Shown: piece by piece, positions 2 through 58,011 of the stretch
Layout of the letters: each line of letters begins with the position of its first letter
Position numbering within the stretch: the first letter of the stretch is position 1
Origin: an uncultured Acidobacteriota bacterium
GTDB lineage: Bacteria; Acidobacteriota; Terriglobia; UBA7540
Reading direction: 5' to 3'
DNA length: 64,000 nt
Assembly (NCBI GenBank): GCA_963804995.1
Contig: CAWDSK010000006.1
Coordinates: 1,408,001-1,472,000, forward strand
The notes under the pieces: generated by a model
Databases searched by the model: none
What the model was told of the DNA's origin: nothing
The model's input: the letters and a program-made list of their open reading frames with translations, nothing else
Made by a program: the position numbers and the translations under genes

Positions 2-928
2 ATCGAGATCAGCGAGAAAGCGGGCCTGCCGGCTCACATCCTGCACTTCAAGATCGATGGCAAGGCAAACTGGGGACAGATGGCGGAGCAGGTTAAAGAG
101 GTTCAGGCGGCGCGCGACCGTGGCGTGGACATCACGGCGAATCAGTATCCTTACATCGCCTCCATGACCGATCTCGAGACGTGCATTCCACCTAAGTACC
201 TGGCGGGGACTTCGGCGGATGAAGTGAAACGGCTCCAAGACCCCAAGGTGCGCGCGGAGATTCGCCAGGCCATCGCGACGGGATTGCCCGGCTGGGAAGC
301 AAACCAGGTGCAGAGCGTGGGGGGATGGCACGGGGTCATGGTGGCGTCGCTTCAAAAGCCGGAGAACAAGAAATACGAAGGTAAGCGCATGGATGAAATC
401 GCGAAGCTGATGGGCAAAGACCCCGTGGACGCGCTGTGCGATCTATTGGTTTCGGAAGGCGGGGCAGCGGAAGCCATCTACTTCAACATGAGTGACCAGG
501 ACGTGGAATTGGCCATGAAGGAATCCTGGGTCGGAATCGGCTCCGACGGTGGAGCGGTCTCACCGGAGATGACCTTCGTGGGCAGGCCCCATCCGCGCTT
601 CTACGGAACTTTTCCGCGTGTCCTGGGAGTCTATGTGCGCGAGAAACATGTGCTGACGCTCCCCGACGCGGTGCGCAAGATGACGTCACTTTCAGCGGCG
701 ATCACCGGCCTCACGGACCGCGGCATGCTCCGGCCGGGGATGGCGGCGGATATCACCCTCTTCAATCCCGAAACGGTGATCGATAAGGCTACCTTCGAAG
801 ATCCTATGCAGTACCCCGTGGGCATTCCGTATGTCATCGTGAACGGCACCGTGGTGATCGACCAGGGCCAGCATACTGGCGCGAAGCCGGGACGCGTGCT
901 GCGCGGTCGGGGTAAGAGCAGCGGTTAG
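2..928 (+). CDS. N-acyl-D-amino-acid deacylase / amidohydrolase (5'-truncated by window edge)
   Basis: Open frame from nt 2 (IEISEKAGLPAHILHFK); IGSDG, HPRFYGTFPRVLG and RGMLRPGMAADITLF motifs. Confidence 0.9.
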   Translation: MEISEKAGLPAHILHFKIDGKANWGQMAEQVKEVQAARDRGVDITANQYPYIASMTDLETCIPPKYLAGTSADEVKRLQDPKVRAEIRQAIATGLPGWEANQVQSVGGWHGVMVASLQKPENKKYEGKRMDEIAKLMGKDPVDALCDLLVSEGGAAEAIYFNMSDQDVELAMKESWVGIGSDGGAVSPEMTFVGRPHPRFYGTFPRVLGVYVREKHVLTLPDAVRKMTSLSAAITGLTDRGMLRPGMAADITLFNPETVIDKATFEDPMQYPVGIPYVIVNGTVVIDQGQHTGAKPGRVLRGRGKSSG

Positions 929-19186: not shown

Positions 19187-19342
19187 AATTTTAGTGAGTC
19201 ACTCAGGTGGATATAAGGAAGATATAAAGAAAAGGTAAATTTTGTCAACGCCTGTCGATTTTTCTTGACAGGCTCGAAGGCCCTGGCTTAGTTTGCCATG
19301 GGACGCTGGATCCGCAGGCTTTGATACGATTCGGCGTCTGGA

Positions 19343-19512
19343 TCCTCGGTAGGCGAGGCGTCCGCGCGACACACAAGCCACTGCCCAGTCAGTGTCCAAA
19401 GATGCTGATGGAATCGGTAGAACAGGCACTCCCGGATTAAGGGTTTGTCTAATGTGGCTGAGGTTCGAAAGCCTCTCACGGCGTGCGGTGCTGAAGCTTG
19501 GGCGAGTGAGGA
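19343..19512 (+). ncRNA. M-box (ykoK) Mg2+ riboswitch aptamer
   Basis: Ordered M-box landmarks GGTAGGCGAGGC, CACTGCCCA, TGTCCAAAGATGC, AACAG, TAAGG, TAATGTGGCTG, GTGCTGAAGCT; P1 TCCTC/GAGGA; lies upstream of Mg transporter genes. Confidence 0.88.
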
Positions 19513-19567
19513 CAACCAGCTCGACAAAGGCTGCACGTCCGGGCCTTGCGGTCAGCCCTCGGCATTA

Positions 19568-19888: not shown

Positions 19889-21160
19889 ATGAACGTTTTT
19901 TCCAAGCTCTATTACCGGTACAAGAAGATCCTGAAGGTCATCAGGCTATTCCTCATCATCGCCGGCCCCGGCATCATCGTCATGGTTGCCGACAACGATG
20001 CCGGAGGCATCACGACGTATACCGCCACGGGGGCGAAGTTCGGTTTCAGCCTCATCTGGTTCCTGATCCTGCTGGGGCCGGTCGCTTACTACGTGCAGGA
20101 GATGACCGTACGACTTGGGGCGGTGACCAAACGGGGTCATGCGGAGGCTATTTTTCACGCCTTCGGATCTTTTTGGGGATGGTTTTCCCTTTTGGACCTG
20201 GTGCTGTTGAATTGGCTCACCATGATCACGGAGTTTATCGGCATGACGGCGGCGCTCGGTATTTTCGGTGTGCCGCGAATCGTCACGGTGATCCTAGCTT
20301 CGGTCATGATGGGGACCATGGTCATCCAGGGGCGCTACTGGACATGGGAGAAGGCGGCCATGGTCTTTTGTGTACTCAATCTCATTTACATCCCCGCCGC
20401 GTTCATGATCCATCCTCCGGTCAGCCAAGTTCTTCAGGGATGCTTGATTCCACAGCTTCCACCCGGAGGCTTTACGAACGAGCTGTTCTTCTTCCTCATG
20501 GCGAATATCGGTACCACGATTGCGCCGTGGATGATTTTCTTCCAACAGAGTGCCGTGGTGGACAAGAGCCTGCAGGAGAAAGACATTACCGGCGGCAAGG
20601 TGGACACGGCGATCGGCGCCTTTTTCACCGTGCTGGTAGCCGCCTTTTGCGTGATCCTCACCGGCACGCTTCTCCCCGGTCAGAACATTTACGATGCCGC
20701 CTCGGCAGCCGCCAAATTTATGGGCATCAGCAAGCAACTCGGCACCTTCCTGGCCATCGGGTTATTCGACGCGGGATTTCTGGGAGCCATCTGCATCTCG
20801 CTCGCCAGCTCGTGGGCTTTCGGTGAGGTGTTCGGTTGGGCCCACTCTCTGAACAACAAAGTGAAAGAGGCGCCCTGGTTCTACGCGTATTACTTTTTCG
20901 GCATCTTTTTGGCGGGGGCGGTGGTTCTGATTCCGCACGCACCTCTGGTGCTGATCACCCTTTTTGTGCAGGTGATCGCGGTGACCTTACTGCCTGCGGC
21001 CTTGGTCTTTCTGATCCTGCTCCTTAACAACGAGGAAACCATGGGCCGGTACAAGAATTCAATGTTCCAAAATATCGCCAACATCACGATCGTGACGATG
21101 ATCATCCTCGTTTCCACCTTGTACGGAATCAGCGCGCTGTTTCCAAACATTCTGAAGTGA
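19889..21160 (+). CDS. Nramp-related divalent cation transporter (probably Mg2+)
   Basis: GPGIIVMVADNDAGGITTY, QEMTVRLG, GTTIAPWMIFFQQS; ~11 TM segments; M-box upstream. Confidence 0.9.
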   Translation: MNVFSKLYYRYKKILKVIRLFLIIAGPGIIVMVADNDAGGITTYTATGAKFGFSLIWFLILLGPVAYYVQEMTVRLGAVTKRGHAEAIFHAFGSFWGWFSLLDLVLLNWLTMITEFIGMTAALGIFGVPRIVTVILASVMMGTMVIQGRYWTWEKAAMVFCVLNLIYIPAAFMIHPPVSQVLQGCLIPQLPPGGFTNELFFFLMANIGTTIAPWMIFFQQSAVVDKSLQEKDITGGKVDTAIGAFFTVLVAAFCVILTGTLLPGQNIYDAASAAAKFMGISKQLGTFLAIGLFDAGFLGAICISLASSWAFGEVFGWAHSLNNKVKEAPWFYAYYFFGIFLAGAVVLIPHAPLVLITLFVQVIAVTLLPAALVFLILLLNNEETMGRYKNSMFQNIANITIVTMIILVSTLYGISALFPNILK

Positions 21161-21181
21161 ACGATTGGGTCGAGGCTCAAC

Positions 21182-21358
21182 ATGATTCTTGAATTCTTTA
21201 AGAACACGATCGGCACCGTGAGGTCCATCAACCAGAAGTACGCTAAACCCCAGATCAAAATGACCCGAATGGTGAAGTTCTCTCTCTTGTTGCTCCGGCT
21301 TTATTTGATATTTCTGGTCGGGATATTGGTCTACAAGTTCATTACGATGCTCCGTTAA
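21182..21358 (+). CDS. 58-aa small membrane protein (not in ORF track)
   Basis: MILEFFKNTIGTVRSINQKYAKPQIKMTRMVKFSLLLLRLYLIFLVGILVYKFITMLR; GAGG RBS; fills the operon gap exactly. Confidence 0.75.
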   Translation: MILEFFKNTIGTVRSINQKYAKPQIKMTRMVKFSLLLLRLYLIFLVGILVYKFITMLR

Positions 21359-21371
21359 GCAGAGGTAACTC

Positions 21372-22649
21372 ATGAGCGAAACGAAAACGGCCCGGAACGG
21401 GGTAGAGAAGCGCTATTTCTTAACCGAACTCATCGGGGCACGCGCCTATCTGCAGGGGAAGAAGATCGGCAAGCTAACCGACGTCATCGTCGTAGACCAG
21501 GGCAAGCTGGCCGAGGTCACCCATTTCGAGATTAGTCGGCCCTTCGGTGACCCCGCGTTGCTGATACCGCAGCAAAAGGCCCGATCGCTTGGCCCTCGGG
21601 AAATCACCATCGACATCGAGGATCCACAGAGCTATGTACGGGGGCTTTTGCCCGGAGAAATCCCGCTGAGGGACTATCTCTTGGACAAAAAAGTTTTGGA
21701 CATCGAGGGCCGAGAGGTCGAAGTTGTCTACGACATTCGTTTGGCGGTAACTAGTGACAAGGTCTACGTGAGCGATGTCGACATCAGCCGTTACGGGTTG
21801 CTCCGCCAACTGGGACTGCGGGCTCTTGCCAACCGCTTATCCAAACGAAGCGGCGACGGCGAAAAAAACCTCATCCCTTGGTCCTATATCCAGCCCTTGC
21901 CGCCCCAACTGGGCGCACTACAAGGGGATCTCAGGCTCAGCATCCTGAAAGAAAGGCTCGCCGAGATTCATCCCGTGGACTTGGCCGATATCCTGGAAGA
22001 ACTCGACAGTTCCCAAAGGGCCACCATCATGGAGGGTCTGGATACCGAACACGCCTCCGACACGCTGGAGGAGGTTGAGCCGGCGGTGCAGCGTGATATT
22101 GTCCGCTCGCTGCGGAAAGATCGAGTGGCCGAACTGATCAGAGAAATGACACCCGGCCAGGCGGCCGATATTCTGTCGGTTCTTCCCTCCGATGACAAGA
22201 AAGCCATCCTAAGACTGCTCGAGCCATCCCAAGTCACGAAGATCGAAAAAATATTAGAAGAACAGGACCTCAACATTATCAGTTTCGCCTCGACTCGCTT
22301 TTTCAAGTTTCCCCCGGAAATCACCGTCGAGGAAGCCCAGGTAAAATGCCGTGAAATGGCCAAACGAATCGACGTTGTGATGTACCTCTACATCGTGGAT
22401 CCCAGCGACAAACTCCTGGGGGTGGCGGATATCAAAGACCTGTTCATGGCTGGGGACAACGAACTGCTGCGGGACCTGATGGTTGATAACGTCATCACCC
22501 TCAACCCCACGAGCACGATGAAAGAGGCCTTGAATCTGTTCACGCGATACAACTTTAAGGCTCTCCCCGTGGTCGGTGTGAACAACGCCATTCTGGGGGC
22601 TGTACCTTGCCGTGATGTGATGAACGTTAGGCACCGGGTTTTAGAGTAG
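21372..22649 (+). CDS. Soluble MgtE-like protein (PRC-barrel + MgtE N-domain + CBS pair, no TM domain)
   Basis: LLDKKVLDIEGR, HPVDLADILEEL, YLYIVD..LLGV, YNFKALPVV. Confidence 0.9.
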   Translation: MSETKTARNGVEKRYFLTELIGARAYLQGKKIGKLTDVIVVDQGKLAEVTHFEISRPFGDPALLIPQQKARSLGPREITIDIEDPQSYVRGLLPGEIPLRDYLLDKKVLDIEGREVEVVYDIRLAVTSDKVYVSDVDISRYGLLRQLGLRALANRLSKRSGDGEKNLIPWSYIQPLPPQLGALQGDLRLSILKERLAEIHPVDLADILEELDSSQRATIMEGLDTEHASDTLEEVEPAVQRDIVRSLRKDRVAELIREMTPGQAADILSVLPSDDKKAILRLLEPSQVTKIEKILEEQDLNIISFASTRFFKFPPEITVEEAQVKCREMAKRIDVVMYLYIVDPSDKLLGVADIKDLFMAGDNELLRDLMVDNVITLNPTSTMKEALNLFTRYNFKALPVVGVNNAILGAVPCRDVMNVRHRVLE

Positions 22650-24709: not shown

Positions 24710-25828
24710 TCACTTCGCGTTGCGCAGGGCTTCGTCCACAGCTTGGTAATAGCTTTCGGGGGAGTCCAGGCCCAGGACCTTCTTCCCATTGATAAAGCTG
24801 GTGGGTGTCCTGTCCACGTCCACGCGCTTGCCTTCGGCGCTATCGGCGTTTACGCGCGGCAGCGACGCCTTGGCATCAATGCACGCGGCCAGTTTCACGC
24901 GGTCGACCCCCGACTGCTCGCCGTAAGCAAGCAGCAAATCCCGGAGGTTGGTGATATTGATGGCCTGCTGGCTGCGGAAGATCGCCGAGCGCAGGGGCAC
25001 ATAGGAGGAGGGGTTCATCTGGTAGGCACACTGGCAGGCAATGGCAGCCGTCAAAGACCAGTCGTGAAAACCCACGAGGGGGAATTCCTTGAAGACCACG
25101 CGCACCTTGTTTCCGTATCGGGGCAACAATTGGGTTAACAGGAACTCGTGCAGCCGGGCGCACATGGGGCATTGCAGATCGCCGAACTCAACGATCGTCA
25201 CGGGAGCGTTCTCCGGCCCTAGCGAGGGCGCGTTGTGAAGCGAAAGGGTGTGCAAGGCTTGCTGCTGCGGATCTACTTGTAAATTGAAGATCTCGCTCAT
25301 GATCAGGTGCTTGCCATCCCGGGCGAGAAGCAGGGGCTTGGTCTGCTTAACCTTTCCGTCGTCGGCGAGAAGGGACCCTTCCCTGAAGTCAGGCGCGGGA
25401 GAGGGGTGGAAGGCTGTCACCGCAAGCTTTGTCGCGTCCGGAACCTTGAAGGCCTCCTTGACTCGTCGAACCATCTCAGAGTCTGAATTCTGATCGAGAC
25501 TCAGGACGGGGCCCACAACCACAATGAGATAATGCGAGTCCTTGGAGATGAACACCAACTGATTGCCCTTGTTCTTGCCGTCGTCCACAGCGACGTCGGC
25601 TTCATAGAAACCCGCGGTAAATGAATTGCGCGGCGGACCCAGGGTGAGCTTCGTACTATCGTGAACCCCAAAGCGTTCACGGATGTAGTGCAACACCTTG
25701 TCACGTGTGGCGTTGTCGAACGCCGGTGGGGCAGCGGATTGCCCCGCTCCGCCTACCAGCCGCGGGACTCCACCCCCCAGCGCCAGGAATAACGCCACCC
25801 ACAGGACCTTCGAAGGTTTGCCTTTCAA
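24710..25828 (-). CDS. DsbA/DsbC-like thioredoxin-fold protein with duplicated N-terminal domain
   Basis: EFGDLQCPMC; TPTSFING; paralog of 11173..12096. Confidence 0.9.
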   Translation of the reverse strand: MKGKPSKVLWVALFLALGGGVPRLVGGAGQSAAPPAFDNATRDKVLHYIRERFGVHDSTKLTLGPPRNSFTAGFYEADVAVDDGKNKGNQLVFISKDSHYLIVVVGPVLSLDQNSDSEMVRRVKEAFKVPDATKLAVTAFHPSPAPDFREGSLLADDGKVKQTKPLLLARDGKHLIMSEIFNLQVDPQQQALHTLSLHNAPSLGPENAPVTIVEFGDLQCPMCARLHEFLLTQLLPRYGNKVRVVFKEFPLVGFHDWSLTAAIACQCAYQMNPSSYVPLRSAIFRSQQAINITNLRDLLLAYGEQSGVDRVKLAACIDAKASLPRVNADSAEGKRVDVDRTPTSFINGKKVLGLDSPESYYQAVDEALRNAK

Positions 25829-26068
25829 GCGGGTCTTATCCTCCCTTGGGAACGAGTTCGCCTGCAGCCCATAGATGATTCTAGTGAATCTGGCGCGTTC
25901 ATGGCAAACGCGATTTTTCCGGGCAGACCTATACCAAGCCCGGATTTCTCGCGGCGGGCCTTGTAGCAGCGGTCTATGAGGTTTTCACACAGACTCTTCA
26001 GCCCCGCCTTACGACAGCTCGAAGAAAATGGTATGGCCTGGTGAGAAATCCCAGCTAGCGTCCGATTT

Positions 26069-26950
26069 TCATTTGCCCTTGGGTGTTTCCAAAGCCACTT
26101 TAGCGTTGGAAAATCCTGTCTCAATATCCCTGCCGCGGTGGTACAGGAAAACGTGCACAAGAAACATTAAGGTAAGAACACCCCCGAAGGTGCAGACGAT
26201 AGTCGCGCCAGTAGGCAAATCCAGCACGACTGAGAGATAAACGCCCAGTGCTGAAACCAGCGTTCCCATCGTCCACCCGATGGCCAGGCGCCGCCCAATC
26301 CGATCCGCAAACAGCATGGCGCCCACAGAGGGCACGATCAAGTAACAGAAAACCAGCAGGACGCCGGCGATGGCGACCGAAGACGTGACCACGAATCCGA
26401 ACGATGCGTAGAAGAGGAAGTCCCAGAATCGTACCGAGATGCCCTGGGCCTCGGCCCCCTTGGGATCGATGGAAATGAGCAGGAACTTCTTGCGGAAGAT
26501 GAAGTGGAATAAGCCAATGGCGGCATAGAGCGCCGCGGTCTTGGCCACTTCCGGCCCGGAGACGGCCAGGATGTTGCCCACCAGCATATCCTTCAGGTGC
26601 TCAGTTTCGCCGGTGGCTTTGCTCATGGCCAGAATCGCCGCGGCGGAGGCAACGGCATAGGCAATGCCGATGATGGCTTCCTGCGGAATGTGCGCGCGTC
26701 GCACGCGGAGGAGAGAAAAGATCGCCGCCCCCAGAAAAGTGAAAGCCAAGCTGACCCAGTAAGTTCTGCCGCCGTGCGGGTCCATGCCGAAAAGGATCGC
26801 CACCGTGGCGCCGAGCGCCGCGATCTGCGCCAGGGCGAGATCGACGAAGATAACCCCGCGCTCGACCACGTGCACGCCCAGGTAGGCGTGGATACCCGTG
26901 AGGATCAGACTGGCCAGGAACGGCATCAGCAAGAACGGAAGAATTTCCAT
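26069..26950 (-). CDS. Metal ABC transporter permease (ZnuB/ABC-3 family)
   Basis: LGVHVVERGVIFVDLALAQIAALG, QEAIIGIAY, GVLLVFCYLIVP, DLPTGATIV. Confidence 0.9.
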   Translation of the reverse strand: MEILPFLLMPFLASLILTGIHAYLGVHVVERGVIFVDLALAQIAALGATVAILFGMDPHGGRTYWVSLAFTFLGAAIFSLLRVRRAHIPQEAIIGIAYAVASAAAILAMSKATGETEHLKDMLVGNILAVSGPEVAKTAALYAAIGLFHFIFRKKFLLISIDPKGAEAQGISVRFWDFLFYASFGFVVTSSVAIAGVLLVFCYLIVPSVGAMLFADRIGRRLAIGWTMGTLVSALGVYLSVVLDLPTGATIVCTFGGVLTLMFLVHVFLYHRGRDIETGFSNAKVALETPKGK

Positions 26951-26968
26951 TCAACCTCCTTCGTCTCC

Positions 26969-27916
26969 CTAATGTATGGCAGCGACCGCTTTACTAAGCA
27001 ACGCAATATCGTAATCGAAAAGTTTGAAATAATCCGTCACTTCTTTTTCCCCGCCCACCGAGGGCAGCATGACCAGAACCTGTGCTCCCGTCTGGCTGCC
27101 AATGCTGTTCGGGGTCTTCAGGTCAAAGTAGGGCTCAACCATGATCAGCTTCACATTGTCACGCCGCATCATCCCGATCAGTTCCAGGGTGTGGCTGGGA
27201 GAGGGGGGGATGCCCGGGCGGGGTTCGACATAGCCCACCACATTCAAATCGAAGCGTTTGGCGAAGTTCGGCCAGGACTTATGATAGGAAACTACCTTCA
27301 ACCCGTGGAACGGCTTCATGGCTTCGTCCCAGACTTTTTCCTGAGTGGTAAGCCGCTGGCTGAACGCCTGGAAGCGTTGTTCGAAATAGGCAGTATCTTC
27401 GGGCCGCATCTCCGCAAGTTTCATCTGAATCCCATGCGCGATGCGGCGACCGTTCTCCGGGTCAAGCCAGTAGTGCGGGTTGCCCAACGGGTGCACATCA
27501 CCCATGGCCCGAGTGACCACCCCGGTGGGCTTCTCAAGTATTTCCGCGAAATCCGAGGCGTCCAGGTAGCCGGCCGCTCCCACCTGAATGCGCGGGTTGC
27601 CGGACTGGGTAATAAGAGGCGGCAGCCAGCCGATTTCCAGTTGCAGGCCGACCACGATCAGCAAGTCCGCCTTTCGCAGCTTCAGCAGGAAGCTGGGCTT
27701 CGCCTCCACAAAGTGGGGGTCTTGATAGCCGCGGGCAATGGATTCCACCTCAATGTGGTCGCCGCCGATCTCCGACGCGAGCGCGGCCAGGTCGCTGGTG
27801 GCCGTGACCACCTTGATCTTCGCGGCAGCTCGCGCCCGGACGGGGCAAAGCACGCCGAGCGCGATGGCCAAGCTCGAAAACAGCGCGAAACGCAAGAGCA
27901 CGTATTGTTGGTTCAT
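26969..27916 (-). CDS. Metal ABC transporter substrate-binding protein (ZnuA/TroA family)
   Basis: DPHFVE, GDVHPLGNPHYWLDP, YHKSW, EPRPGIPPSPSH. Confidence 0.92.
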   Translation of the reverse strand: MNQQYVLLRFALFSSLAIALGVLCPVRARAAAKIKVVTATSDLAALASEIGGDHIEVESIARGYQDPHFVEAKPSFLLKLRKADLLIVVGLQLEIGWLPPLITQSGNPRIQVGAAGYLDASDFAEILEKPTGVVTRAMGDVHPLGNPHYWLDPENGRRIAHGIQMKLAEMRPEDTAYFEQRFQAFSQRLTTQEKVWDEAMKPFHGLKVVSYHKSWPNFAKRFDLNVVGYVEPRPGIPPSPSHTLELIGMMRRDNVKLIMVEPYFDLKTPNSIGSQTGAQVLVMLPSVGGEKEVTDYFKLFDYDIALLSKAVAAIH

Positions 27917-27925
27917 CGGACCTCC

Positions 27926-29266
27926 TTAGAAGGGATGGGCGCCATGGGCTCCCAGGGAGAATTGGAATTGGAAAAGCAGTTCATTGGCGTCCCGGCCGTC
28001 CGCGTAGTGGCCGAAACGATACTGTCCCCGAATCTGGCTGAACTCGCTGGGCCAGTACGTGAGGATCGTGGAAAAGCCCGAGTCCGTGAGGCTGGCATTG
28101 GTTGCCCGGTCGGAGCGGTCGAATCGCCCCCCCACAAACCACCTCCTGCCGAGTTGGTAGTCCCCGGACGTATAAAACCCGAAGGCTTGCTGAACGGATC
28201 CGAGCTGGTCGCGCTCGCTCCAGATAAGCTCGCTGCGGCCAATAAAAGAGTGGTAGATGGCGCGCCGCAGCGGCTTCCAGTGTAGCGTGGCATCCATCCC
28301 ATAGAGTTGCGTCCGAAACGCGCTGCCCAGGTCGTTATGGCCCCGCGCAAAAGAGAAGCCGAGATCGAGATTGGTGTTGTCAGTGATGTCCTTATAGCTG
28401 CGCAGGTGCCCGACCAGGCTGACATTGCCCCGTTGGCTCGACTTGAAAACATCCCCGGAGTCTCCCCGGAAGACCTGTGCCGTCCCCTCCAGGAAGATGT
28501 TCTTGGGCGCAGGCAGAATGCGGGTTATGGACAGACCCGCATCGTCAATTCCATCCTCGCCACCTACCAGGTTTTCAGTTACCAGGGGTCGGTCAGTCCA
28601 GGGTAGCACATGATTGTGAAGCGTGTTGACCTTACCAAAAGCGGCGCGCATCTTGCCCACCCTGGCGACAAACCCTCCGGGGAGCGAAGTAAAGGTGAGG
28701 TAGCCTTCTTCCAGATTCACGCCTTCCTCACCAAAGGATAGGAAGAAGTCAGCGCGCGCGTACGGATTGACGATTGCCTGAAGGCCGACTTCAGACTCGT
28801 GCATTTCCAGGGCAGGCCCCCCGTGCATGGGGTTCTTGCCGACGGCACCAAGAAAATCGCCAATCACACTGATATCAGGGTTGAGGGCTTTCGCAGCAGC
28901 GCTCGCTCCCCCATAGACGGGTAATTGGCCGGGGGTTTCACCCGGTAAGAGGGGAGCCGCCGCGACGGTTTGGGGAGCTCGGGCAGGCGCTTGCGGCTCG
29001 GGGGGCGGCTGCGTGGCTGCCTCTGGCGCGGGCGGCGGAGGGGCCGCCGCAACCTCGGGGGTTGCATTAGGAATCTGCCCCACGGCCACGGGCGCTGCCG
29101 AGGTTACGGCCGCGAGGGCAGTCTTGAGCGCCTTGATTTCTTCCTCCAAAGCCCGGATGCGATCTTCATCGGCCTTCAGCCGTTCCTCTACCTTATCATT
29201 CGTCTGCGCCCCGAGGATTCCGGGCGCGAGAACTAACAACCAGACCAGAACCACAAGTTGTCGCAT
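27926..29266 (-). CDS. Outer-membrane beta-barrel (porin/TonB-receptor-like) metal uptake protein
   Basis: Signal peptide; coiled coil and Pro linker; NPDISVIGD, FGKVNTLHNH, SEFSQIRGQY; C-terminal LGAHGAHPF. Confidence 0.8.
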   Translation of the reverse strand: MRQLVVLVWLLVLAPGILGAQTNDKVEERLKADEDRIRALEEEIKALKTALAAVTSAAPVAVGQIPNATPEVAAAPPPPAPEAATQPPPEPQAPARAPQTVAAAPLLPGETPGQLPVYGGASAAAKALNPDISVIGDFLGAVGKNPMHGGPALEMHESEVGLQAIVNPYARADFFLSFGEEGVNLEEGYLTFTSLPGGFVARVGKMRAAFGKVNTLHNHVLPWTDRPLVTENLVGGEDGIDDAGLSITRILPAPKNIFLEGTAQVFRGDSGDVFKSSQRGNVSLVGHLRSYKDITDNTNLDLGFSFARGHNDLGSAFRTQLYGMDATLHWKPLRRAIYHSFIGRSELIWSERDQLGSVQQAFGFYTSGDYQLGRRWFVGGRFDRSDRATNASLTDSGFSTILTYWPSEFSQIRGQYRFGHYADGRDANELLFQFQFSLGAHGAHPF

Positions 29267-29472
29267 GGTAAGAATCCTCCTGGCCCCTTCGATTTAGGAT
29301 GATCGAGAAAGGCGAGATTCGGTGGGGCGGCGTGGAATCAGTGCCTTTCGGGCCCTGTGCATCACTCACTTTCTGATGCCTGCAAGCTAGCACGAGCCCG
29401 GCGTTTCGTTTAAACAATTTTCGCGAGCTGGAGCAGTCGCATGATTTCAGATCGAGAGCGTCAATTGATTCC

Positions 29473-30777
29473 TTATGGCAAGTTCCTTGTCCCTACGGCT
29501 TCCTTCAATTGCACGAGAGAGAGCAGGTAGTTCGCCAGCGCCTGGCGATAGGCAAGCTGGATGGCGCGGAAGCTGCGCTCCGCATCAAGAAAGTCGAGCA
29601 GGCTGGCCGCGCCGCGCTGGTAGGCGTATTCGCTGATGTCGCGCGAGTCTTTGGCCTGTTGCAGGTATCCCGAAGTGTAAAGCTGAACGATCTGGTCGTT
29701 GGTCTTCAGCCCCTGATAGGCGTTTTCAACATCCGTCAGCACAATTTCGGAAGCGGCGGTCTGGAGCTCCTGCGCCCCCGTAATGGCGTAATGGGTGCGG
29801 GCAATCTCGCCCTGGTTACGATCGAAAATGGGAATCTCGATATTCATGGCGAAGCTGGCGCTATTCATGGCAGTAACATGAGAATAGTCAACGGTGGTGG
29901 TCAGGTTCCGCTTGCCGTTGGCCTTCGCCAAATCGTACTGGCTTTTAGCCGCCGTTACACCCTGCTGAGCGGCTAGAAGGTCAGGGCGCTGTTTGAGCGC
30001 CAAGGATTGCAGGTCTTCCTGATTGCCGTGCACGGGAGTGTAGGTGAGTTCGCCGATGACTTCAAAATCGGCCGGAACCGATTCGAAGCCCAGGAGCTGC
30101 CGGAGGCCGGCGCGTGCCTGCACCAGGGCAATTTGCGCCGCGGAAACGTCGGTTTGAAATTGCAACAACTGCAACTTGATTTTCAGCAGGTCGGCTTCAC
30201 TGATCGCCCCGGCTTTGTACCGCGTGTCACTCAGTTTGACTGTCTGCACAAAGCTTGCCAGGTCCTGTTTAGCAAACTCCAGGTTCGACATAGCCAGAAG
30301 AATGGTGACAAACTGCTGCGCCACGTTGAAGGTCAAGCCCCGCTCCGTGTCCTTCACCTGGGAGCGGGTGACGGCGGTTGCGTCGTGCGCAGCCTGGATG
30401 CGGGCTTGACGCTTGTGACCGCGTTCAAAGGTATAGCTGAGGCCCAGGTCAAACTCCGAGATGTTGTCGAGCGTGGAGCCGGTAAGCTGGCTGGGGCTGA
30501 AGAGGGGGATGAATAAGTCGTCGTAGGTGAACACCGGGTTGGGGCGAATGGCCGCCGTGATCTCCTCCGCCTCGCTCTGCTGAATCTGGTTCTCCGCCGC
30601 CTTCAAAGCGTGATTATGCTTGATGGCAAGCTGGATGGCCTGCTCGATATCGATGCGGGACACCGGCGGAGCCTTTTGCGCGCTTGCTGCGCCGATCCCG
30701 GTAGCCAACAAAAGGACCACGGGCATCAAGAATCCCAAACGCTTCAGAGTGGAGAAAATGCCATTGACGTTCATCAT
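29473..30777 (-). CDS. TolC/CzcC-family outer membrane factor
   Basis: IPIFDRNQGEI, AYQRGAASLLDFLDAER, RPDLLAA. Confidence 0.92.
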   Translation of the reverse strand: MMNVNGIFSTLKRLGFLMPVVLLLATGIGAASAQKAPPVSRIDIEQAIQLAIKHNHALKAAENQIQQSEAEEITAAIRPNPVFTYDDLFIPLFSPSQLTGSTLDNISEFDLGLSYTFERGHKRQARIQAAHDATAVTRSQVKDTERGLTFNVAQQFVTILLAMSNLEFAKQDLASFVQTVKLSDTRYKAGAISEADLLKIKLQLLQFQTDVSAAQIALVQARAGLRQLLGFESVPADFEVIGELTYTPVHGNQEDLQSLALKQRPDLLAAQQGVTAAKSQYDLAKANGKRNLTTTVDYSHVTAMNSASFAMNIEIPIFDRNQGEIARTHYAITGAQELQTAASEIVLTDVENAYQGLKTNDQIVQLYTSGYLQQAKDSRDISEYAYQRGAASLLDFLDAERSFRAIQLAYRQALANYLLSLVQLKEAVGTRNLP

Positions 30778-30875: not shown

Positions 30876-31223
30876 TTAGATGAGGGGTGGAGCTCGACCG
30901 AATCTGATGGCCGGCTGCAACGAGCGGTAGAATCGGTGGTTCAGGCTGGGAGGCAGGGGAACCGAAGCCGCCGGCTGAAAAACCACCACGTCCGTGGCGG
31001 GTTGAACGGCGCTCTGGCGAACAATCTGGCACGCCGTGCAGGGTAGGCCGTTCTCCCCCGTGGGCAACTGCTGAACCTGCGCCTGCACCGACGGGGTGTG
31101 CCCCAGCGTCAGCATCTCACCATGGTGATGCAGCATGGTCACGCCAAAGAGGTGAACCTGCAACAGCACCAGCGCGTAAGGCGTGACAATCCGATTGACT
31201 CGGTGAATCAGACCACTTGCCAC
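30876..31223 (-). CDS. DUF2946/CruR-like upstream ORF (HHH, CTAC, C-terminal RAPP)
   Basis: Hydrophobic N-terminal segment, LHHH, CTACQ, Pro-rich linker, GRAPPLI-stop; first gene of the metal operon. Confidence 0.75.
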   Translation of the reverse strand: MASGLIHRVNRIVTPYALVLLQVHLFGVTMLHHHGEMLTLGHTPSVQAQVQQLPTGENGLPCTACQIVRQSAVQPATDVVVFQPAASVPLPPSLNHRFYRSLQPAIRFGRAPPLI

Positions 31224-48304: not shown

Positions 48305-48554
48305 CAGGTAGCCGGCAGCGCGCGGGTAGCCGCCGTTTGGCTTCCTCCGCGGCGCGGCCGAAAATAGGGACGCATTACGCTAGGATGAATGTCTTTCGGA
48401 TGCAACCCCCCGCCGGGAGGCAGGCATCCATTCATTGCAAAACGCACAGGGGCATTGAGAACTCCCCAAATTGAAAATTTCTTGGTATGATGTGGACAGG
48501 CTAGGGCTAAAGGGACCCCCCGGGTCCGGGTTGTAAAAGTGCGGAACGAATAAC

Positions 48555-48905
48555 TTGCGACGGTTAGGAAAATCTCGACACCGATACTGGGTGCATGCAC
48601 TCATTGCCTGCCTTGCCCTGGCCGGTGAATTTCAGCTTCTCTCGGTCGAAGTCTTCCATCACCACGAATCTTCTGCGAGTGTCTGCCGTGCTGGACACGG
48701 CACGACACACCTGCATGCGAGTCAGGAAGTCAGCCCGTTCTGCCCGCTTTGCCAAGTGGCTCGCAGCAGCTCGGTTCGGCCCGCGGCCCGGGCCCTCCTC
48801 TCGAAGCCGCATCTCGGAACACCCTACCACCTGACAGCTTGGGAACCGAGGTACTCTCTTAACCTCGCCCAAGCGTTAGGCGCCCGCTCCCCTCCCCTCT
48901 CCTGA
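48555..48905 (+). CDS. DUF2946/CruR-like upstream ORF (HHH, CPLC, C-terminal RSPP)
   Basis: Basic + hydrophobic N-terminus, FHHH, HLH, CPLCQ, GARSPPLS-stop; 55 nt before a TonB receptor. Confidence 0.75.
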   Translation: MRRLGKSRHRYWVHALIACLALAGEFQLLSVEVFHHHESSASVCRAGHGTTHLHASQEVSPFCPLCQVARSSSVRPAARALLSKPHLGTPYHLTAWEPRYSLNLAQALGARSPPLS

Positions 48906-48959
48906 AAATTTTCCCATCTCGCTTCACCTCAAAATTCTCAGGAGCAAAAGGAGCAGGGC
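48882..48959 (+). promoter_or_regulatory. SD-sequestering hairpin overlapping the uORF arrest codons
   Basis: CTCCTGAAAATTTT (48899-48912) pairs 13/14 with AAAATTCTCAGGAG (48931-48944); GCCCGCTCC pairs with GGAGC-A-GGGC over the SD. Confidence 0.7.
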
Positions 48960-48960
48960 C

Positions 48961-51744
48961 ATGGTCGAAAGGCGACCCCTTTTATTTTTCTCTATTGTTT
49001 TCTTGTGGGCAGTGACCCTTCCCGCGGTGATACTCGGGCAGAACCTGGGGAGCGCCGGGACGGTCCACGGCACGGTGGCGGATCCCTCCGGCGCAGTGAT
49101 CCCCGGCGCCACAGCGACAATTCACAACCCCATCACCGGTTTTGAACGCACCGCCTCAACGGACAGCTCGGGCGGGTTCAGCTTCACCAACGTCCCCTTC
49201 AATCCGTATCACCTGAGCGTTACCGCCACGGGCTTCGCCCCCCAGGCGCAAGAGGTGGACCTTAACTCCATGGTTCCCGTCAGTCTAAAAATCACGCTGC
49301 AATTGGCCGGCGCGAAAACCACGGTAACGGTCACGGGCGAAGCGGCGGATATCATCGAGACGGATCCCACGACCCATACGGATGTGGACCGGGCACTCTT
49401 CGATAAGCTGCCGCTCGAAAGTCAATCCTCCTCCATCAGCTCATTGATCACCCTTTCCACACCGGGAGTCACCGCGGATTCCAACGGCCTCTTCCACGGA
49501 ATGGGCGATCACGCAGAAAATTCGTTCTCGGTGGACGGCCAGCCCATCACCGACCAGCAAAGCAAGATCTTCTCGAATCAGATTTCTCTCAACTCCATCC
49601 AGTCGTTGGAGGTGATACCGGGGGCGCCACCGGCGGAATTCGGAGACAAAACCAGTGTGGTCATCGTCGCCACCACACGGTCGGGGCTTGGGGTCAGCAA
49701 GCCGACCGGAAGCATCACCGCTTCCTATGGCACATTTGGTTCGGCAAATGGCGGCTTCAATCTCGCCTATGGCAAGGACAAGTGGGGCAACTTCATTTCT
49801 GCCAATGGTCTGAACACCAGCCGGTTTTTGGATCCACCGGAATTCAACGTGATGCACGCCCGGGGGAATCAGCAGAATCTGTTTGACCGGTTCGACTTCA
49901 AACCCTCGGACAGGGATACCTTCAATTTGAACTTCGGTTTCACGCGGTCCTGGTTCCAGACGCCCAATTCGTTCGACGCCCAAAACGCCACAGCATGGTC
50001 CGGACTCGTGGTCGACAATGGAGGATTCGGGCCCGACGGCCGTCTGGTGGGTTCCGAGGACCAGCGTTCCCAAATTAAGACAATCAACGTTGCCCCCAGT
50101 TGGTCGCGTCTGGTCAATGGCAACACTGTGGTCTCACTCGGTGGTTGGGTCCGGCACGATCAAGCGAACTACTACCCGAGCGCCAACCCCTTCGCCGACC
50201 TTACGCCAGGTCTTCAGACACAGACCCTCAGCCAAAATCGCACGCTTACCAACGCAGGCGCGAGGGCGAATATCTCTTACGCGAAAGGCATCCACAACCT
50301 GAAGGCGGGAGTCAACTTCCAGCACACCTTTCTGACAGAAAACGACTCCTTCGGGATCGTCGATCCCACCTTTAACCCAGTCTGTTTTAACCCTGACGGG
50401 AGTCCTGACACCAACCCGGCGCTGACGAATCCGGCGAATTGCAGCGGCCTGGTGCAGGCAAATCCCGGATTTGTACCGCTGCTGGGTTGCTACGATCTAA
50501 CCCGTACGGGGTCACTCCCAGCGTCCGACGGTTGCCCGAATCCGACCAGTGGGTTGTACGCTTTCCGCGGTCACTCGGATATTAAAGAGGTGGCCCTGTA
50601 CATTCAGGACACCATCAAAGCGAAGAATTGGATGTTTAACCTCGGGCTGCGCGGCGATTTCTACAATGGCATAACGATTGCCCGTCTGGTGGAACCTCGC
50701 GTCGGCGTTTCCTATAACATCAAGCATACGAACACCGTGCTGCGGGCGTCTTACGCTCGCGCCATGGAAACGCCGTTCAATGAGAACTTGGTCCTGGCCA
50801 GCAAGGGGTGCGACGACCCCGTGGTCAATGATCTCATGTCTATCAGCCAGGGCTATCCCTGCCTCACCGTTCCCCTGAGCCCCGGTACGCGTAATGAGTT
50901 TCATGCCGGCCTCGAGCAAGCCTTCGGAAAATACCTGGTTGTGGACGGCGAATACATTTGGAAGTATACGCATGGGGCTTACGACTTCAGTATCTTCGGC
51001 GCCACGCCGCTCACTTTTCCCATAGTGTGGGACCACTCGAAAATCCCCGGATATGCCGTCCGCCTAAGTGTCCCGAATACCCACGGATTTACCGCATTTG
51101 TGGTCTTCTCCAGTGTGGCGGCACGCTTCTTCACACCCCAGATCAGCGGAATTGGAACTACGCCGACGAGCGCGGGCGCGGGTGGAGTTTTTCGCATTGA
51201 CCACGACGAGGTGTTCAATTCAACCGCTCACCTGCAATACCAGCCGTTTAAACGCGGCCCCTGGGTTGGCTTCAACTGGCGCTACGATAGCGGCCTCGTG
51301 GCAGGTCCCACACCGTGCGCGGGCGGCAATTGCAATAACGGGCCGAACGGGACGGACACGGTCGTGGACTTTTCCGGGTTGACTCCCGACCAGCAATTCC
51401 AAGCAGGACTCTCCTGCGGGGGCGTTTTTGCGACCCCCACGACTCCGATCAATTCAAGTGGCCTGTGCCCGGCGAATGACTACTCTTCCAAATACATAAA
51501 GATTCCAGCGGCAGGCACCGAAAACGACGATCACAACCCACCCCGTATCGCCCCGCGCAACCTCTTCGATATATCGGTGGGCCACGACAATCTGTTTAAC
51601 GGTGACAAACACAAATGGAGCGTCCGCTTTACGGTCATCAACCTGACCAATAAAGAGGCGCTCTATAACTTCCTTTCGACCTTCAGTGGAACCCATTACG
51701 TTACGCCGCGAACCTTTACGGCGGAACTGGGCTTTCACTTCTAA
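48961..51744 (+). CDS. TonB-dependent receptor with carboxypeptidase-regulatory-like N-domain
   Basis: GTVADPSGAVIPGA, VDGQPITD, EPRVGVSY, C-terminal PRTFTAELGFHF. Confidence 0.93.
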   Translation: MVERRPLLFFSIVFLWAVTLPAVILGQNLGSAGTVHGTVADPSGAVIPGATATIHNPITGFERTASTDSSGGFSFTNVPFNPYHLSVTATGFAPQAQEVDLNSMVPVSLKITLQLAGAKTTVTVTGEAADIIETDPTTHTDVDRALFDKLPLESQSSSISSLITLSTPGVTADSNGLFHGMGDHAENSFSVDGQPITDQQSKIFSNQISLNSIQSLEVIPGAPPAEFGDKTSVVIVATTRSGLGVSKPTGSITASYGTFGSANGGFNLAYGKDKWGNFISANGLNTSRFLDPPEFNVMHARGNQQNLFDRFDFKPSDRDTFNLNFGFTRSWFQTPNSFDAQNATAWSGLVVDNGGFGPDGRLVGSEDQRSQIKTINVAPSWSRLVNGNTVVSLGGWVRHDQANYYPSANPFADLTPGLQTQTLSQNRTLTNAGARANISYAKGIHNLKAGVNFQHTFLTENDSFGIVDPTFNPVCFNPDGSPDTNPALTNPANCSGLVQANPGFVPLLGCYDLTRTGSLPASDGCPNPTSGLYAFRGHSDIKEVALYIQDTIKAKNWMFNLGLRGDFYNGITIARLVEPRVGVSYNIKHTNTVLRASYARAMETPFNENLVLASKGCDDPVVNDLMSISQGYPCLTVPLSPGTRNEFHAGLEQAFGKYLVVDGEYIWKYTHGAYDFSIFGATPLTFPIVWDHSKIPGYAVRLSVPNTHGFTAFVVFSSVAARFFTPQISGIGTTPTSAGAGGVFRIDHDEVFNSTAHLQYQPFKRGPWVGFNWRYDSGLVAGPTPCAGGNCNNGPNGTDTVVDFSGLTPDQQFQAGLSCGGVFATPTTPINSSGLCPANDYSSKYIKIPAAGTENDDHNPPRIAPRNLFDISVGHDNLFNGDKHKWSVRFTVINLTNKEALYNFLSTFSGTHYVTPRTFTAELGFHF

Positions 51745-51886: not shown

Positions 51887-52312
51887 GTGAAATTCCGATC
51901 CCTAATTCTATGCTGCGCGTTCGTCGCCCTGTGCGGTTTGGGCCTGGCGCAGAAGACTAACGTCGTGACCGTTCCCGCCCCCCACACTGCGGCGACCTCG
52001 GGCAAGCAGATGTATCAGGCATACTGCGCTACCTGCCACGGGATCGGAGGGAAGGGGGACGGGCCTGTCGCCAGCGCGTTAAAAGTTCCCCCGGCGGACC
52101 TGACGGCACTTTCGAATAGGAATAATGGCAAATTCCCGTCGGTGCAGGTCGTCAATATCATCACCGGCCCCTCCGGCGCAGCAGCTCACGGCACTAAAGA
52201 AATGCCGGTCTGGGGTCCAATTTTCAGAACGATGGAACACCAACACGAGTCAGAGGTACGCCTGCGCGTGGCTAATCTCACGGATTATATTAAGTCGTTG
52301 CAGCAGAAGTGA
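51887..52312 (+). CDS. Monoheme cytochrome c
   Basis: Signal peptide; CATCH; distal Met in EMPVWG. Confidence 0.92.
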   Translation: MKFRSLILCCAFVALCGLGLAQKTNVVTVPAPHTAATSGKQMYQAYCATCHGIGGKGDGPVASALKVPPADLTALSNRNNGKFPSVQVVNIITGPSGAAAHGTKEMPVWGPIFRTMEHQHESEVRLRVANLTDYIKSLQQK

Positions 52313-56900: not shown

Positions 56901-57065
56901 CTAACTGGCCTTCCGGTTGGCACGTCTCTGCTCACGGCCCTGCTTGAGTTGAGCATCAAGCTCTTCTTTGCCCACCGAAAGCAAGCGCCTGAGCCCCGCC
57001 TTAAACTTACGCGGCGATATTTTGACTTTTTCTTCGACGCCAGTTTGTCCCGTGTCTTTATACAT
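56901..57065 (-). CDS. 54-aa basic ORF overlapping the transposase stop
   Basis: MYKDTGQTGVEEKVKISPRKFKAGLRRLLSVGKEELDAQLKQGREQRRANRKAS; GAGG RBS inside the tnp 3' end. Confidence 0.55.
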   Translation of the reverse strand: MYKDTGQTGVEEKVKISPRKFKAGLRRLLSVGKEELDAQLKQGREQRRANRKAS

Positions 57066-58011
57066 CCTCACCTTCTTTTCCGGTCAATTCGTTGTACGTC
57101 ACTCTCCGACCGTCTGCCTGTTTTAAGGCCGTCTGGAATCTCTCTCCGTCTGTCATCGTGCGAGTATTGAATCGGAAGGTAGCACTATCGAGATAGCGGT
57201 CAAGGTGAAAAGCGTCAACGGAATGATGCGTCCCGTAAATTGTCCGCTTGAACAGGCTCCAGAAGTTCTCAAGGCCGTTCGTGTGAACACGGCCCCGGAC
57301 AAATTCTTCGGCGTGATTGATGACTTCGTGAATGTAATTCTGCTCTTCGATTCCGTCATAGGACTTCAATGCGTCAGAGTAGATGACGGAGCCGGGAGCA
57401 ACGTTGCGGCTGATTTGTGCTTGAAGCTCTCCCTTGCGCACAGTCCGTACCTTTTTGGCGCGAATCGTACCATGCCGCTTGAGAAGTCCCATGACCGCGC
57501 ACTTGCCGATTGACCCACGGCCAAGATGCTGCCTTTTGCTCGCGTGCTTGAAGCGCTCTTTTCCGCCGATGAAAGTTTCGTCAACTTCGACTTCGCCAGA
57601 CAGCGGGTCGCGATCTCCGTTTTCGCGCATCGTGAGCCGGATTCGGTGAAGCATGAACCATGCGGTCCTTTGCGTCACATTGAGCGCCCGGCCAAGCTGA
57701 TAGGAACTCACATCTTTTTTCGATGACATCTCAAGCCAGAAGGCGGGAAGCCATTTATCCAAGCCAAGCGGGGAGTCCTCGAAAATCGTTCCGACCTTGA
57801 CCGTGAACTGCTTTCGGCAAGTCTTGCAGCGCCAGATGATTCCACGTGTCTTGCTATTGATCGTCCAGACCTCTGTCCCGCCGCAATCCGCACGCGGGCA
57901 AGTGACCTTACCATTGGGCCACCGGACATCTGCAAGAGCCTGATGGCATACTTCCGGGTCGGAGTAGTATCGAACTGCTTCAAGCAACGTTTCTGGTATG
58001 TTGTTAATCAT
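57058..58011 (-). CDS. IS1595-family (ISXO2-like) transposase
   Basis: Zn ribbon; AWFMLHRIR, VEVDETFIGG, YSD, HTNGLENFWS, FRFN. Confidence 0.96.
   Translation of the reverse strand: MINNIPETLLEAVRYYSDPEVCHQALADVRWPNGKVTCPRADCGGTEVWTINSKTRGIIWRCKTCRKQFTVKVGTIFEDSPLGLDKWLPAFWLEMSSKKDVSSYQLGRALNVTQRTAWFMLHRIRLTMRENGDRDPLSGEVEVDETFIGGKERFKHASKRQHLGRGSIGKCAVMGLLKRHGTIRAKKVRTVRKGELQAQISRNVAPGSVIYSDALKSYDGIEEQNYIHEVINHAEEFVRGRVHTNGLENFWSLFKRTIYGTHHSVDAFHLDRYLDSATFRFNTRTMTDGERFQTALKQADGRRVTYNELTGKEGEDV

Follow-up and report, generated by a model that had tools for sequence, protein, structure and literature searches.

Two copper-responsive leader peptides, CruR and CutF, are the closest described relatives of the element reported here, a putative metal-sensing arrest leader in front of a TonB-dependent-receptor-like gene on a 64,000-nucleotide stretch (hereafter the window) of an uncultured Acidobacteriota bacterium (contig CAWDSK010000006.1, positions 1,408,001 to 1,472,000). 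In Bordetella pertussis, CruR (Bp2923, DUF2946/PF11162) is the leader of cruR-bfrG(crtA)-bp2921 and acts through Rho; 45 residues separate its CxxC and RAPP motifs, with one or two extra residues tolerated and five not, and a C>G bubble marks the Rho utilization (rut) site that the stalled ribosome hides (PMC9426467). Ribosome arrest by CruR has been demonstrated (PMC12992588). In Rhodobacter capsulatus, CutF is the leader of cutFOG, and its stalled ribosome unfolds a stem-loop that holds the Shine-Dalgarno (SD) sequence; the same study counted 5,334 CutF-like proteins, some of them proposed nickel or cobalt sensors, whose commonest neighbours are outer-membrane efflux proteins (OEP) followed by TonB receptors (PMC9973294). 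Across Gram-negative bacteria, TonB receptors with a RAPP or RGPP leader in front are described as a general occurrence, and RSPP is recorded as a natural motif (PMC10987492, PMC12992588); mutagenesis of ApdA and ApdP revealed that G, A, S or D at the second motif position keeps full or partial arrest (PMC12992588).

Comparative sequence evidence indicates that the window leader is a real, conserved gene that likely switches translation in response to metal. We regard it as distantly related to CruR and CutF, with no new principle involved. We consider it somewhat probable that this arrest leader, with its CxxC and RxPP motifs 44 residues apart, stalls its ribosome and thereby opens a hairpin masking the receptor SD, so that the receptor is made when a metal, likely divalent (for example zinc), is scarce. 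The open reading frame, its motifs, their fixed spacing, the 55-nt gap, the complementarity and the conservation are directly visible in the sequence. A preliminary description of this DNA had pointed out a 116-residue upstream open reading frame with an anchor segment, HHH, HxxxHLH, CPLC and a terminal RSPPLS, ending 55 nt before the receptor ATG (48961), and all of these are present (Table 1). The first 12 residues include 5 basic ones, and residues 11–35 reach a best 19-residue Kyte-Doolittle mean of 1.77. The AlphaFold model of the leader (mean predicted local distance difference test score, pLDDT, 52) is confident only over helix 6–36 and was left out of the fold search.

To place the leader in a family, we drew 80 receptor loci from genome collections, nearly all labelled Acidobacteriota, 76 of which have at least 400 nt upstream (L009, L039, L048 and L052 were dropped for a missing or short 5' end). 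The labels make a Terriglobia origin of the window likely. Among all loci of this study three labels stand out, Verrucomicrobiia (L053/L054), Anaerolineales (L117) and Gammaproteobacteria (L058); these sequences are identical or close to Acidobacteriota ones and are likely mis-binned contigs. At 29 of the 76 loci a leader combines CxxC with RxPP at its end (L053 and L054, both among the 29, are identical) and, with the gap left unconstrained in the search, the spacing is 44 in 28 and 45 in one. This retention supports the earlier assignment to arrest-type leaders of the CruR class. A close-clade profile finds a match in 99 out of 133 genomes from the same family, a tally that takes in seven unpublished genomes used nowhere else. 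Among 67 distinct close regions, found with a pattern restricted to gaps of 43–46, the motif is RAPP in 35, RSPP in 26 and RGPP in 6, and the gap is 44 in 65. Weaker family matches add 56 leaders (gap 44 in 55), 30 of which precede the same receptor and carry RDPP (19), RAPP (8), RSPP (2) or RGPP (1).

Alignment of the leaders (A1) revealed that CxxC and the R, P and P of the arrest motif are invariant, while H35 and H37 are each kept in at least 90%. Downstream of the membrane segment, HxH is present in 63/63 close homologues (HHH in 59/63), and a third Cys in 57/63. The proposed His-rich metal site survives as HxH; HxxxHLH is confined to the window copy (1/63, with HLH by itself in 17/63, all of the RSPP clade) and we rejected it as a sensing site. 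At loci with long gaps a His follows CxxC instead (21/21). The start codon, 62–64 codons before CxxC, is TTG in 49, GTG in 11, ATG in 1 and CTG in 1 of 62 close loci; gene callers miss or mis-call these TTG- and GTG-started leaders, and six called products (P0001–P0006) bear 45–69 spurious extra N-terminal residues. The four motifs of the family (RAPP, RSPP, RGPP, RDPP) are those that support arrest in the ApdA/ApdP mutagenesis, and they occur at 0.08–0.20 of expectation in Acidobacteriota proteomes, the four most depleted of the RxPP words as far as the source lists them. RSPP, first presented as a variant motif, does belong to the family and recurs among the divergent leaders (5/56); it is not novel, being one of four motifs and known to be partially permissive (PMC12992588). 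Duplication and nesting are suggested by L216 (region 9335-9143), L223, L101 and L104, which show an RSPP-type hairpin/SD copy inside the 5' end of a receptor frame that follows an RDPP leader, and an RDPP-type gap region upstream of RSPP leaders.

The bare pattern CxxC-42..46-RxPP-stop was discarded as evidence, as a six-frame translation of the 7.55-Mb genome gave 7 matches, and control motifs gave 5 (AxPP), 10 (RxAP), 1 (KxPP) and 1 (QxPP). What lifts the leader above chance is the conservation of its homologues together with a recoding control: synonymous recoding of the leader end reached the native SD opening energy in 0/40 trials at the window locus and 0–2/40 at five others.

Folding of positions 48860–48990 placed two stems in both the minimum free energy (MFE) and centroid structures (−37.6 kcal/mol; z = −2.77, with 4/200 shuffles equally good). 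The inner stem joins CTCCTGAAAATTTT to AAAATTCTCAGGAG with a single A-C mismatch, bearing out the 13-of-14 pairing of the stop region reported earlier, and the outer stem pairs the receptor SD with the R-S codons at a probability of 0.92–0.96. Opening the SD costs 8.6 kcal/mol, compared with genome medians of 4.1 for GGAG (n = 250, 12 of which reach 8.6) and 4.4 for GGAGG (n = 250). Modelling a ribosome footprint at the motif's first Pro lowers this to 3.2; the model tests geometry only and says nothing on stalling. Rfam returned no RNA family at the locus, and hence no known riboswitch.

Masking of the SD recurs across loci. Median opening energies are 7.9 in the 66 close loci (the 67 regions without L198, which has another downstream gene) and 9.2 in 25 divergent short-gap loci (L210, counted among the close loci, and three others whose gaps exceed 75 nt were removed). 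In the close loci the modelled footprint brings the median to 4.1, with a drop above 1 in 61/66, and the SD partner lies within the R-x-P-P-L-S codons in 60/66. The first Pro codon is CCT in 60/66, against 14% genome use, and the two invariant prolines further upstream, at −50 and −26, mostly use CCG. At divergent loci the stems are built anew from different sequence, as CGGCUGA/UCAGCCG (L211), CUCCUAAGCG/CGCUUAGGAG (L225) and GUGCUCCUCC/GGAGGAGCAC (L232), including an exchange of TGA/TCA for TAA/TTA. Over the inner stem, 78.9% of cells pair and 7/13 pairs show two-sided change (5/500 shuffles). When leader ends and SDs were swapped between non-redundant loci, cognate duplexes beat swapped ones, at −18.2 versus −15.1 in 26 loci (<75% alike) and −19.1 versus −15.8 in 17 loci (<65%); none or almost none of 20000 permutations was as strong, and with the SD only, p was 0.002 and 0.001.

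The pairing register slides. Across the 26 RSPP loci, the MFE structure pairs the SD with the R-S codons in 3, with S-P in 8, with P-P in 10, with L-S in 4 and elsewhere in 1; both clade consensus folds pair the SD with the Pro-Pro codons, and the GGGC extension of the SD arm is private to the window genome. Thus the A-R-S codons, put forward as the anti-SD, have that role in the window fold and not as a conserved register. The usual anti-SD consists of the Pro-Pro and stop codons, and the A-R-S pairing is largely private. What persists across loci is pairing of the SD with the C/U-rich region of the arrest motif and stop codon, most strongly at short-gap loci. The suggested check for hairpin covariation yields masking conserved in effect along with weak column covariation. 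Loci of the long-gap group (L029–L083; 105–150 nt between leader and receptor) carry two or three recurrent small GC-rich hairpins, one a CCGCC..GGCGG stem with a U-rich loop, with no Rfam match as far as scanned.

Several results weigh against an SD-masking switch of the CruR/CutF class. RNAalifold over all 66 close loci returned no consensus structure, two clade folds held 0 compensatory pairs out of 9 and 10, and the covariation score of the inner stem was no better than that of shuffles (98/500). The cognate partner ranks best in just 2/26 rows of the swap test; the loci share ancestry, and G+C content could play a part. With the stall modelled, divergent loci keep a median of 6.5, or 5.1 if the footprint is lengthened, which exceeds the genome median, and the drop exceeds 1 kcal/mol in only 10 of 19 long-gap loci (a set without L077 and one duplicate). 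The leader family heads efflux-type and uptake-type operons alike, which leaves the polarity unsettled. As for the proposed link to DUF2946, the window leader protein matches no Pfam or NCBIfam family, DUF2946 included (PF11162; cut-off 23.7 bits), and that cut-off is passed by 1/29 aligned members (L070, 27.2 bits). The C-rich tract, taken up below, also counts against it.

Other evidence still ties the leader to these families. At E<=1, 26/29 aligned members match DUF2946, and the leader's neighbours in the ESM Atlas are hypothetical clusters from Acidobacteriota and one cluster of DUF2946 (0.97, 36% of members). It shares with CruR the CxxC, the C-terminal RAPP-like motif and the spacing (44 versus 45), as well as a first position in the operon and, from hydropathy and the model, an N-terminal export signal or membrane segment. 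CutF-type features are also found: fewer than 150 residues, PP within the last 15, a signal, a short gap and a predicted SD-shielding stem-loop. The CutF hallmarks CxxxC, PPP and a downstream multicopper oxidase are missing, and the locus instead has CxxC, RSPP and a TonB-type receptor. We class the leader as DUF2946-like, within the CruR/CutF group, and not as a member of the Pfam family proper.

Like CruR, the leader is the first small gene before a TonB receptor, poorly structured, with a semi-conserved third Cys and a C>G bubble at its 3' end. In contrast to CruR, its family uses RSPP, RAPP, RGPP or RDPP, keeps HxH and carries predicted SD-masking stems; its receptor family is unrelated, its context ZneA/ZnuA-like rather than copper genes, and its own protein is without a Pfam match. 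CutF is an exported metal-sensing leader whose stalled ribosome unfolds the stem-loop shielding the next gene's SD, as proposed for the window leader. CutF differs in its CxxxC and PPP, its dependence on EF-P and its output, a detoxifying oxidase induced as copper prolongs the stall, whereas the window leader has CxxC and RxPP before a receptor and an anti-SD within the arrest codons. SecM, ApdA/ApdP and other RAPP-like peptides are likewise small exported proteins with an RxPP core close to the C-terminus and an SD-masking stem-loop, but monitor Sec/YidC and have no metal ligands.

A different output was shown for CruR, and the preliminary description overlooked it although its signature is present at the locus. 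Under such attenuation, the stalled ribosome would hide a C-rich rut site, release by metal would let Rho terminate transcription before or early in the receptor gene, and the SD pairing would be a by-product. The genome has a rho gene, and a C>G bubble overlies the stall site, its best 78-nt window reaching C−G = 0.346 (attained by 29/5339 gene ends); the median in the 66 close loci is 0.31 (64/5339 gene ends). A C-rich tract can pair with any SD and is equally a Rho signature, which also weighs against SD masking. There are 19 YC dinucleotides and 3 G within 52 nt, the C/U-rich unpaired loop is kept in the RSPP clade, the rare CCT codons recall the cruR rut site, and Rho output is the mechanism shown for the sole tested CxxC/RAPP leader of a TonB receptor (PMC9426467). 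On the other side, the gap of cruR measures 162 nt and that of the close and divergent short-gap loci 46–68 nt (55 nt in the window), the stems are restored locus by locus through G-rich 3' arms for which a rut site has no use, and a folded hairpin would break up such a site. We lean towards the hairpin, in view of the short gap and of G-rich 3' arms that follow the leader end, and regard a purely Rho-based output as rather unlikely. Both outputs mean that the stalled state is on, and they may coexist.

In the hairpin model, the ribosome would arrest with Pro113 in its P site, as in CruR, ApdA and ApdP, and would cover about 48878–48905, a span that takes in the entire anti-SD together with half the inner stem. 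The receptor SD would then be as accessible as that of an average gene. At the stall CxxC would lie 47–50 residues from the P site, just beyond the exit tunnel, where metal bound by CxxC, aided by HxH, may fold the nascent chain and pull it free. The footprint size, the tunnel length and the P-site assignment follow general knowledge and the cited papers. After release, the ribosome would terminate, the stems re-form and the receptor be switched off; Rho may then truncate the untranslated message. The SD switch proposed earlier is supported insofar as a ribosome stalled at RSPP would reach the predicted masking structure; as a new principle it falls, since CutF has already been described (PMC9973294). 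One metatranscriptome (contigs of relatives, mostly <90% alike; share 0.05) had no leader coverage and was uninformative.

The RSPP copy could also be a weakened or constitutive leader, of real ancestry and with little regulation left in this lineage. An A-to-S change gives intermediate arrest in ApdA/ApdP (PMC12992588), the second Pro codon has relaxed to CCA in 17/26 RSPP loci and the window protein has lost its DUF2946 match. The RSPP clade nevertheless retains CxxC, HxH, the spacing of 44, the TCC serine codon (26/26) and a fully paired inner stem, and the motif's recurrence among divergent leaders also speaks against decay; we see only a slim chance of it.

The genes under and around the leader bear on the metal. 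The receptor has His 179, 184, 299, 648, 748, 757 and 912 invariant in 72/72 aligned receptors and 10 nearly invariant Cys; in these no conserved Met is common to leader and leaderless groups. A PDB sequence search gave weak plug matches only, to YncD/PqqU, and an AlphaFold model made without an alignment (pLDDT 33) was left out of the fold search. A paralogous leader in the window (Table 1) heads a run (24710–30777, minus strand) of OEP, beta-barrel-like, ZnuA/AztC-like, ABC-3 permease and DsbA-like genes; its gap is about 98 nt, with no clear SD stem. The OEP of this run is an orphan, most relatives having a membrane fusion protein (MFP) and a ZneA-like resistance-nodulation-division (RND) pump after it. 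In 15 regions of relatives, paralogues head OEP-MFP-RND operons in 9 and ZnuA/B-like runs in 3. Four loci (L204, L207, L211 and L212) have the tandem order leader(RAPP)-OEP-MFP-RND-leader(RDPP)-receptor-DsbA-like in one direction, the second leader beginning immediately after the RND stop. An RND pump lies within 4 kb of 11/29 leader loci and 0/47 leaderless loci, and the one compared is nearer to ZneA (770 bits) than to CusA (502 bits). At L198:147-1120, what follows a close-clade leader is not the receptor but a MerC-like membrane protein (PF03203, E 5e-21).

This gene context points to a divalent metal without fixing which, so that the suggestion of Zn, Ni or Co in place of copper is plausible; we moderately favour Zn, Co, Ni or Mn over Cu. 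That metal releases the arrest, as in CruR, is probable, and that it prolongs the arrest, as in CutF, is less so but a fair contender. Control of this receptor family seems to be of two unrelated kinds, with a LytTR response regulator adjoining 35/47 leaderless and 1/29 leader loci. Leaderless copies (L011, L012, L014, L017, L020, L027 and others) are mostly from Bryobacteraceae. LytTR-type repeats seen by eye 100–1200 nt upstream were not established, a regular expression matching 6/47 leaderless and 1/29 leader loci.

Instead of metal, the leader might sense periplasmic thiol oxidation or export capacity, a CxxC disulfide (with the third Cys) or Sec pull releasing the arrest, so that synthesis of the receptor, which has about five disulfides, would keep step with the capacity to fold it. 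The 10 receptor Cys, the third leader Cys and the signal/anchor would suit this, as would a DsbA-like gene behind the receptor or the paralogous operon (L204, L207, L211, L212, L205, L213 and the window) and the disulfide-driven release proposed for CutF (bioRxiv 10.1101/2025.02.05.636593). We judge it improbable, as HxH is invariant, paralogues head a heavy-metal RND pump and ZnuA/B-like genes, the L198 leader precedes a MerC-like gene, and the stalled CxxC, so near the P site, would hardly be periplasmic.

Upstream of the leader we noted a putative promoter element (Table 1), and a TG(G/C/A)TAnnAT-like element occurs at a similar distance in most of 62 upstream regions (by eye, uncounted). 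No Zur-like palindrome was seen by eye. A sigma-70 consensus scan found 0 full sites, and its one terminator-like match, at 48963–48977, is at chance level (1 versus 0.9 expected).

Table 1. Features of the leader-receptor locus and the paralogous leader, in window coordinates.
Feature	Position	Strand	Remarks
Putative extended −10 promoter element (TGG-TATGAT)	48483..48491	+	About 63 nt 5' of leader start
Leader open reading frame	48555..48905	+	116 aa, TTG (weak) start; CruR/CutF-like arrest-peptide candidate
Hydrophobic signal/anchor segment, residues 11–35	48585..48659	+	Hydropathy; basic N-terminus in front
HHH, residues 35–37	48657..48665	+	Conserved HxH, metal-ligand candidate
HxxxHLH, residues 48–54 (H48, H52, H54)	48696..48716	+	Here only, unconserved
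CPLC, residues 63–66	48741..48752	+	Invariant CxxC; Arg of arrest motif 44 residues further on
Outer stem 5' arm, anti-SD in the register of the window genome (GCCCGCTCC)	48882..48890	+	Folding; register varies in homologues
RSPP codons (CGC TCC CCT CCC), residues 111–114	48885..48896	+	Predicted stall site (P-site 48891–48893), part of anti-SD
Inner stem 5' arm (CTCCTGAAAATTTT)	48899..48912	+	Folding; Leu-Ser-stop codons and 7 nt
C/U-rich loop, 18 nt	48913..48930	+	Part of C>G bubble, rut-like
Inner stem 3' arm (AAAATTCTCAGGAG)	48931..48944	+	Folding
Receptor SD (GGAG) and outer stem 3' arm (GGAGC-A-GGGC)	48950..48959	+	Folding
TonB-dependent-receptor-like protein, 927 aa	48961..51744	+	Pfam PF13620 (CarboxypepD_reg), PF07715 (plug)
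Paralogous leader (HHH, CTAC-44 aa-RAPPLI)	30876..31223	−	28% identity to main leader, E 6e-06

Elsewhere in the window, a small c-type cytochrome gene (51887–52312, plus strand) lies 142 nt behind the receptor and is probably outside the unit, as such a gene is near 1/29 leader loci only. An M-box (magnesium) riboswitch (Rfam RF00380, 107 bits) at 19338–19517 (plus strand) precedes genes at 19889–22649, which we take to be an NRAMP/MgtE-like membrane gene and an MgtE-N/CBS-like gene. A transposase-like open reading frame at 57058–58011 (plus strand) is presumably IS1595-like, judging by its motifs.

Every ingredient of the proposed switch is already in print: the CutF hairpin, CruR and the permissive RSPP. 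What the locus adds is a CruR-type peptide combined with a likely CutF/SecM-type output in a likely non-copper context. Our literature search turned up no Acidobacteriota study of a leader of this kind, with most subscription papers outside its scope and members possibly named in supplementary lists. The term "Acidobacter" is absent from the main text of PMC9973294 and Acidobacteriota terms from the searched supplements of PMC9426467, and the searched part of the PMC12992588 supplementary list holds no match to the close-clade leader motifs.

CruR (Rho output, stall released by metal) and CutF (hairpin output, stall prolonged by metal) are the sole tested members of a very large class, both copper-responsive and both from Proteobacteria, and the family described here likely couples the CruR peptide and a CutF/SecM-type output with the context of a divalent metal, in a soil phylum that is abundant yet almost unstudied. 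Tentatively, and with more doubt than conviction, we can picture zinc-type nascent-peptide sensors throughout Terriglobia, in which one scaffold (HxH, CxxC, 44 residues, RxPP) with four arrest strengths and an anti-SD within the arrest and stop codons would serve uptake (receptor, ZnuA/B) and ZneA-type efflux, possibly with opposite polarity, and would replace a LytTR two-component control of the same receptor in Bryobacteraceae. With its four motifs, fixed 44-residue ruler, sliding anti-SD and both uptake and efflux targets, the family offers a natural series for testing how metal is converted to force on a nascent chain and how polarity is set.

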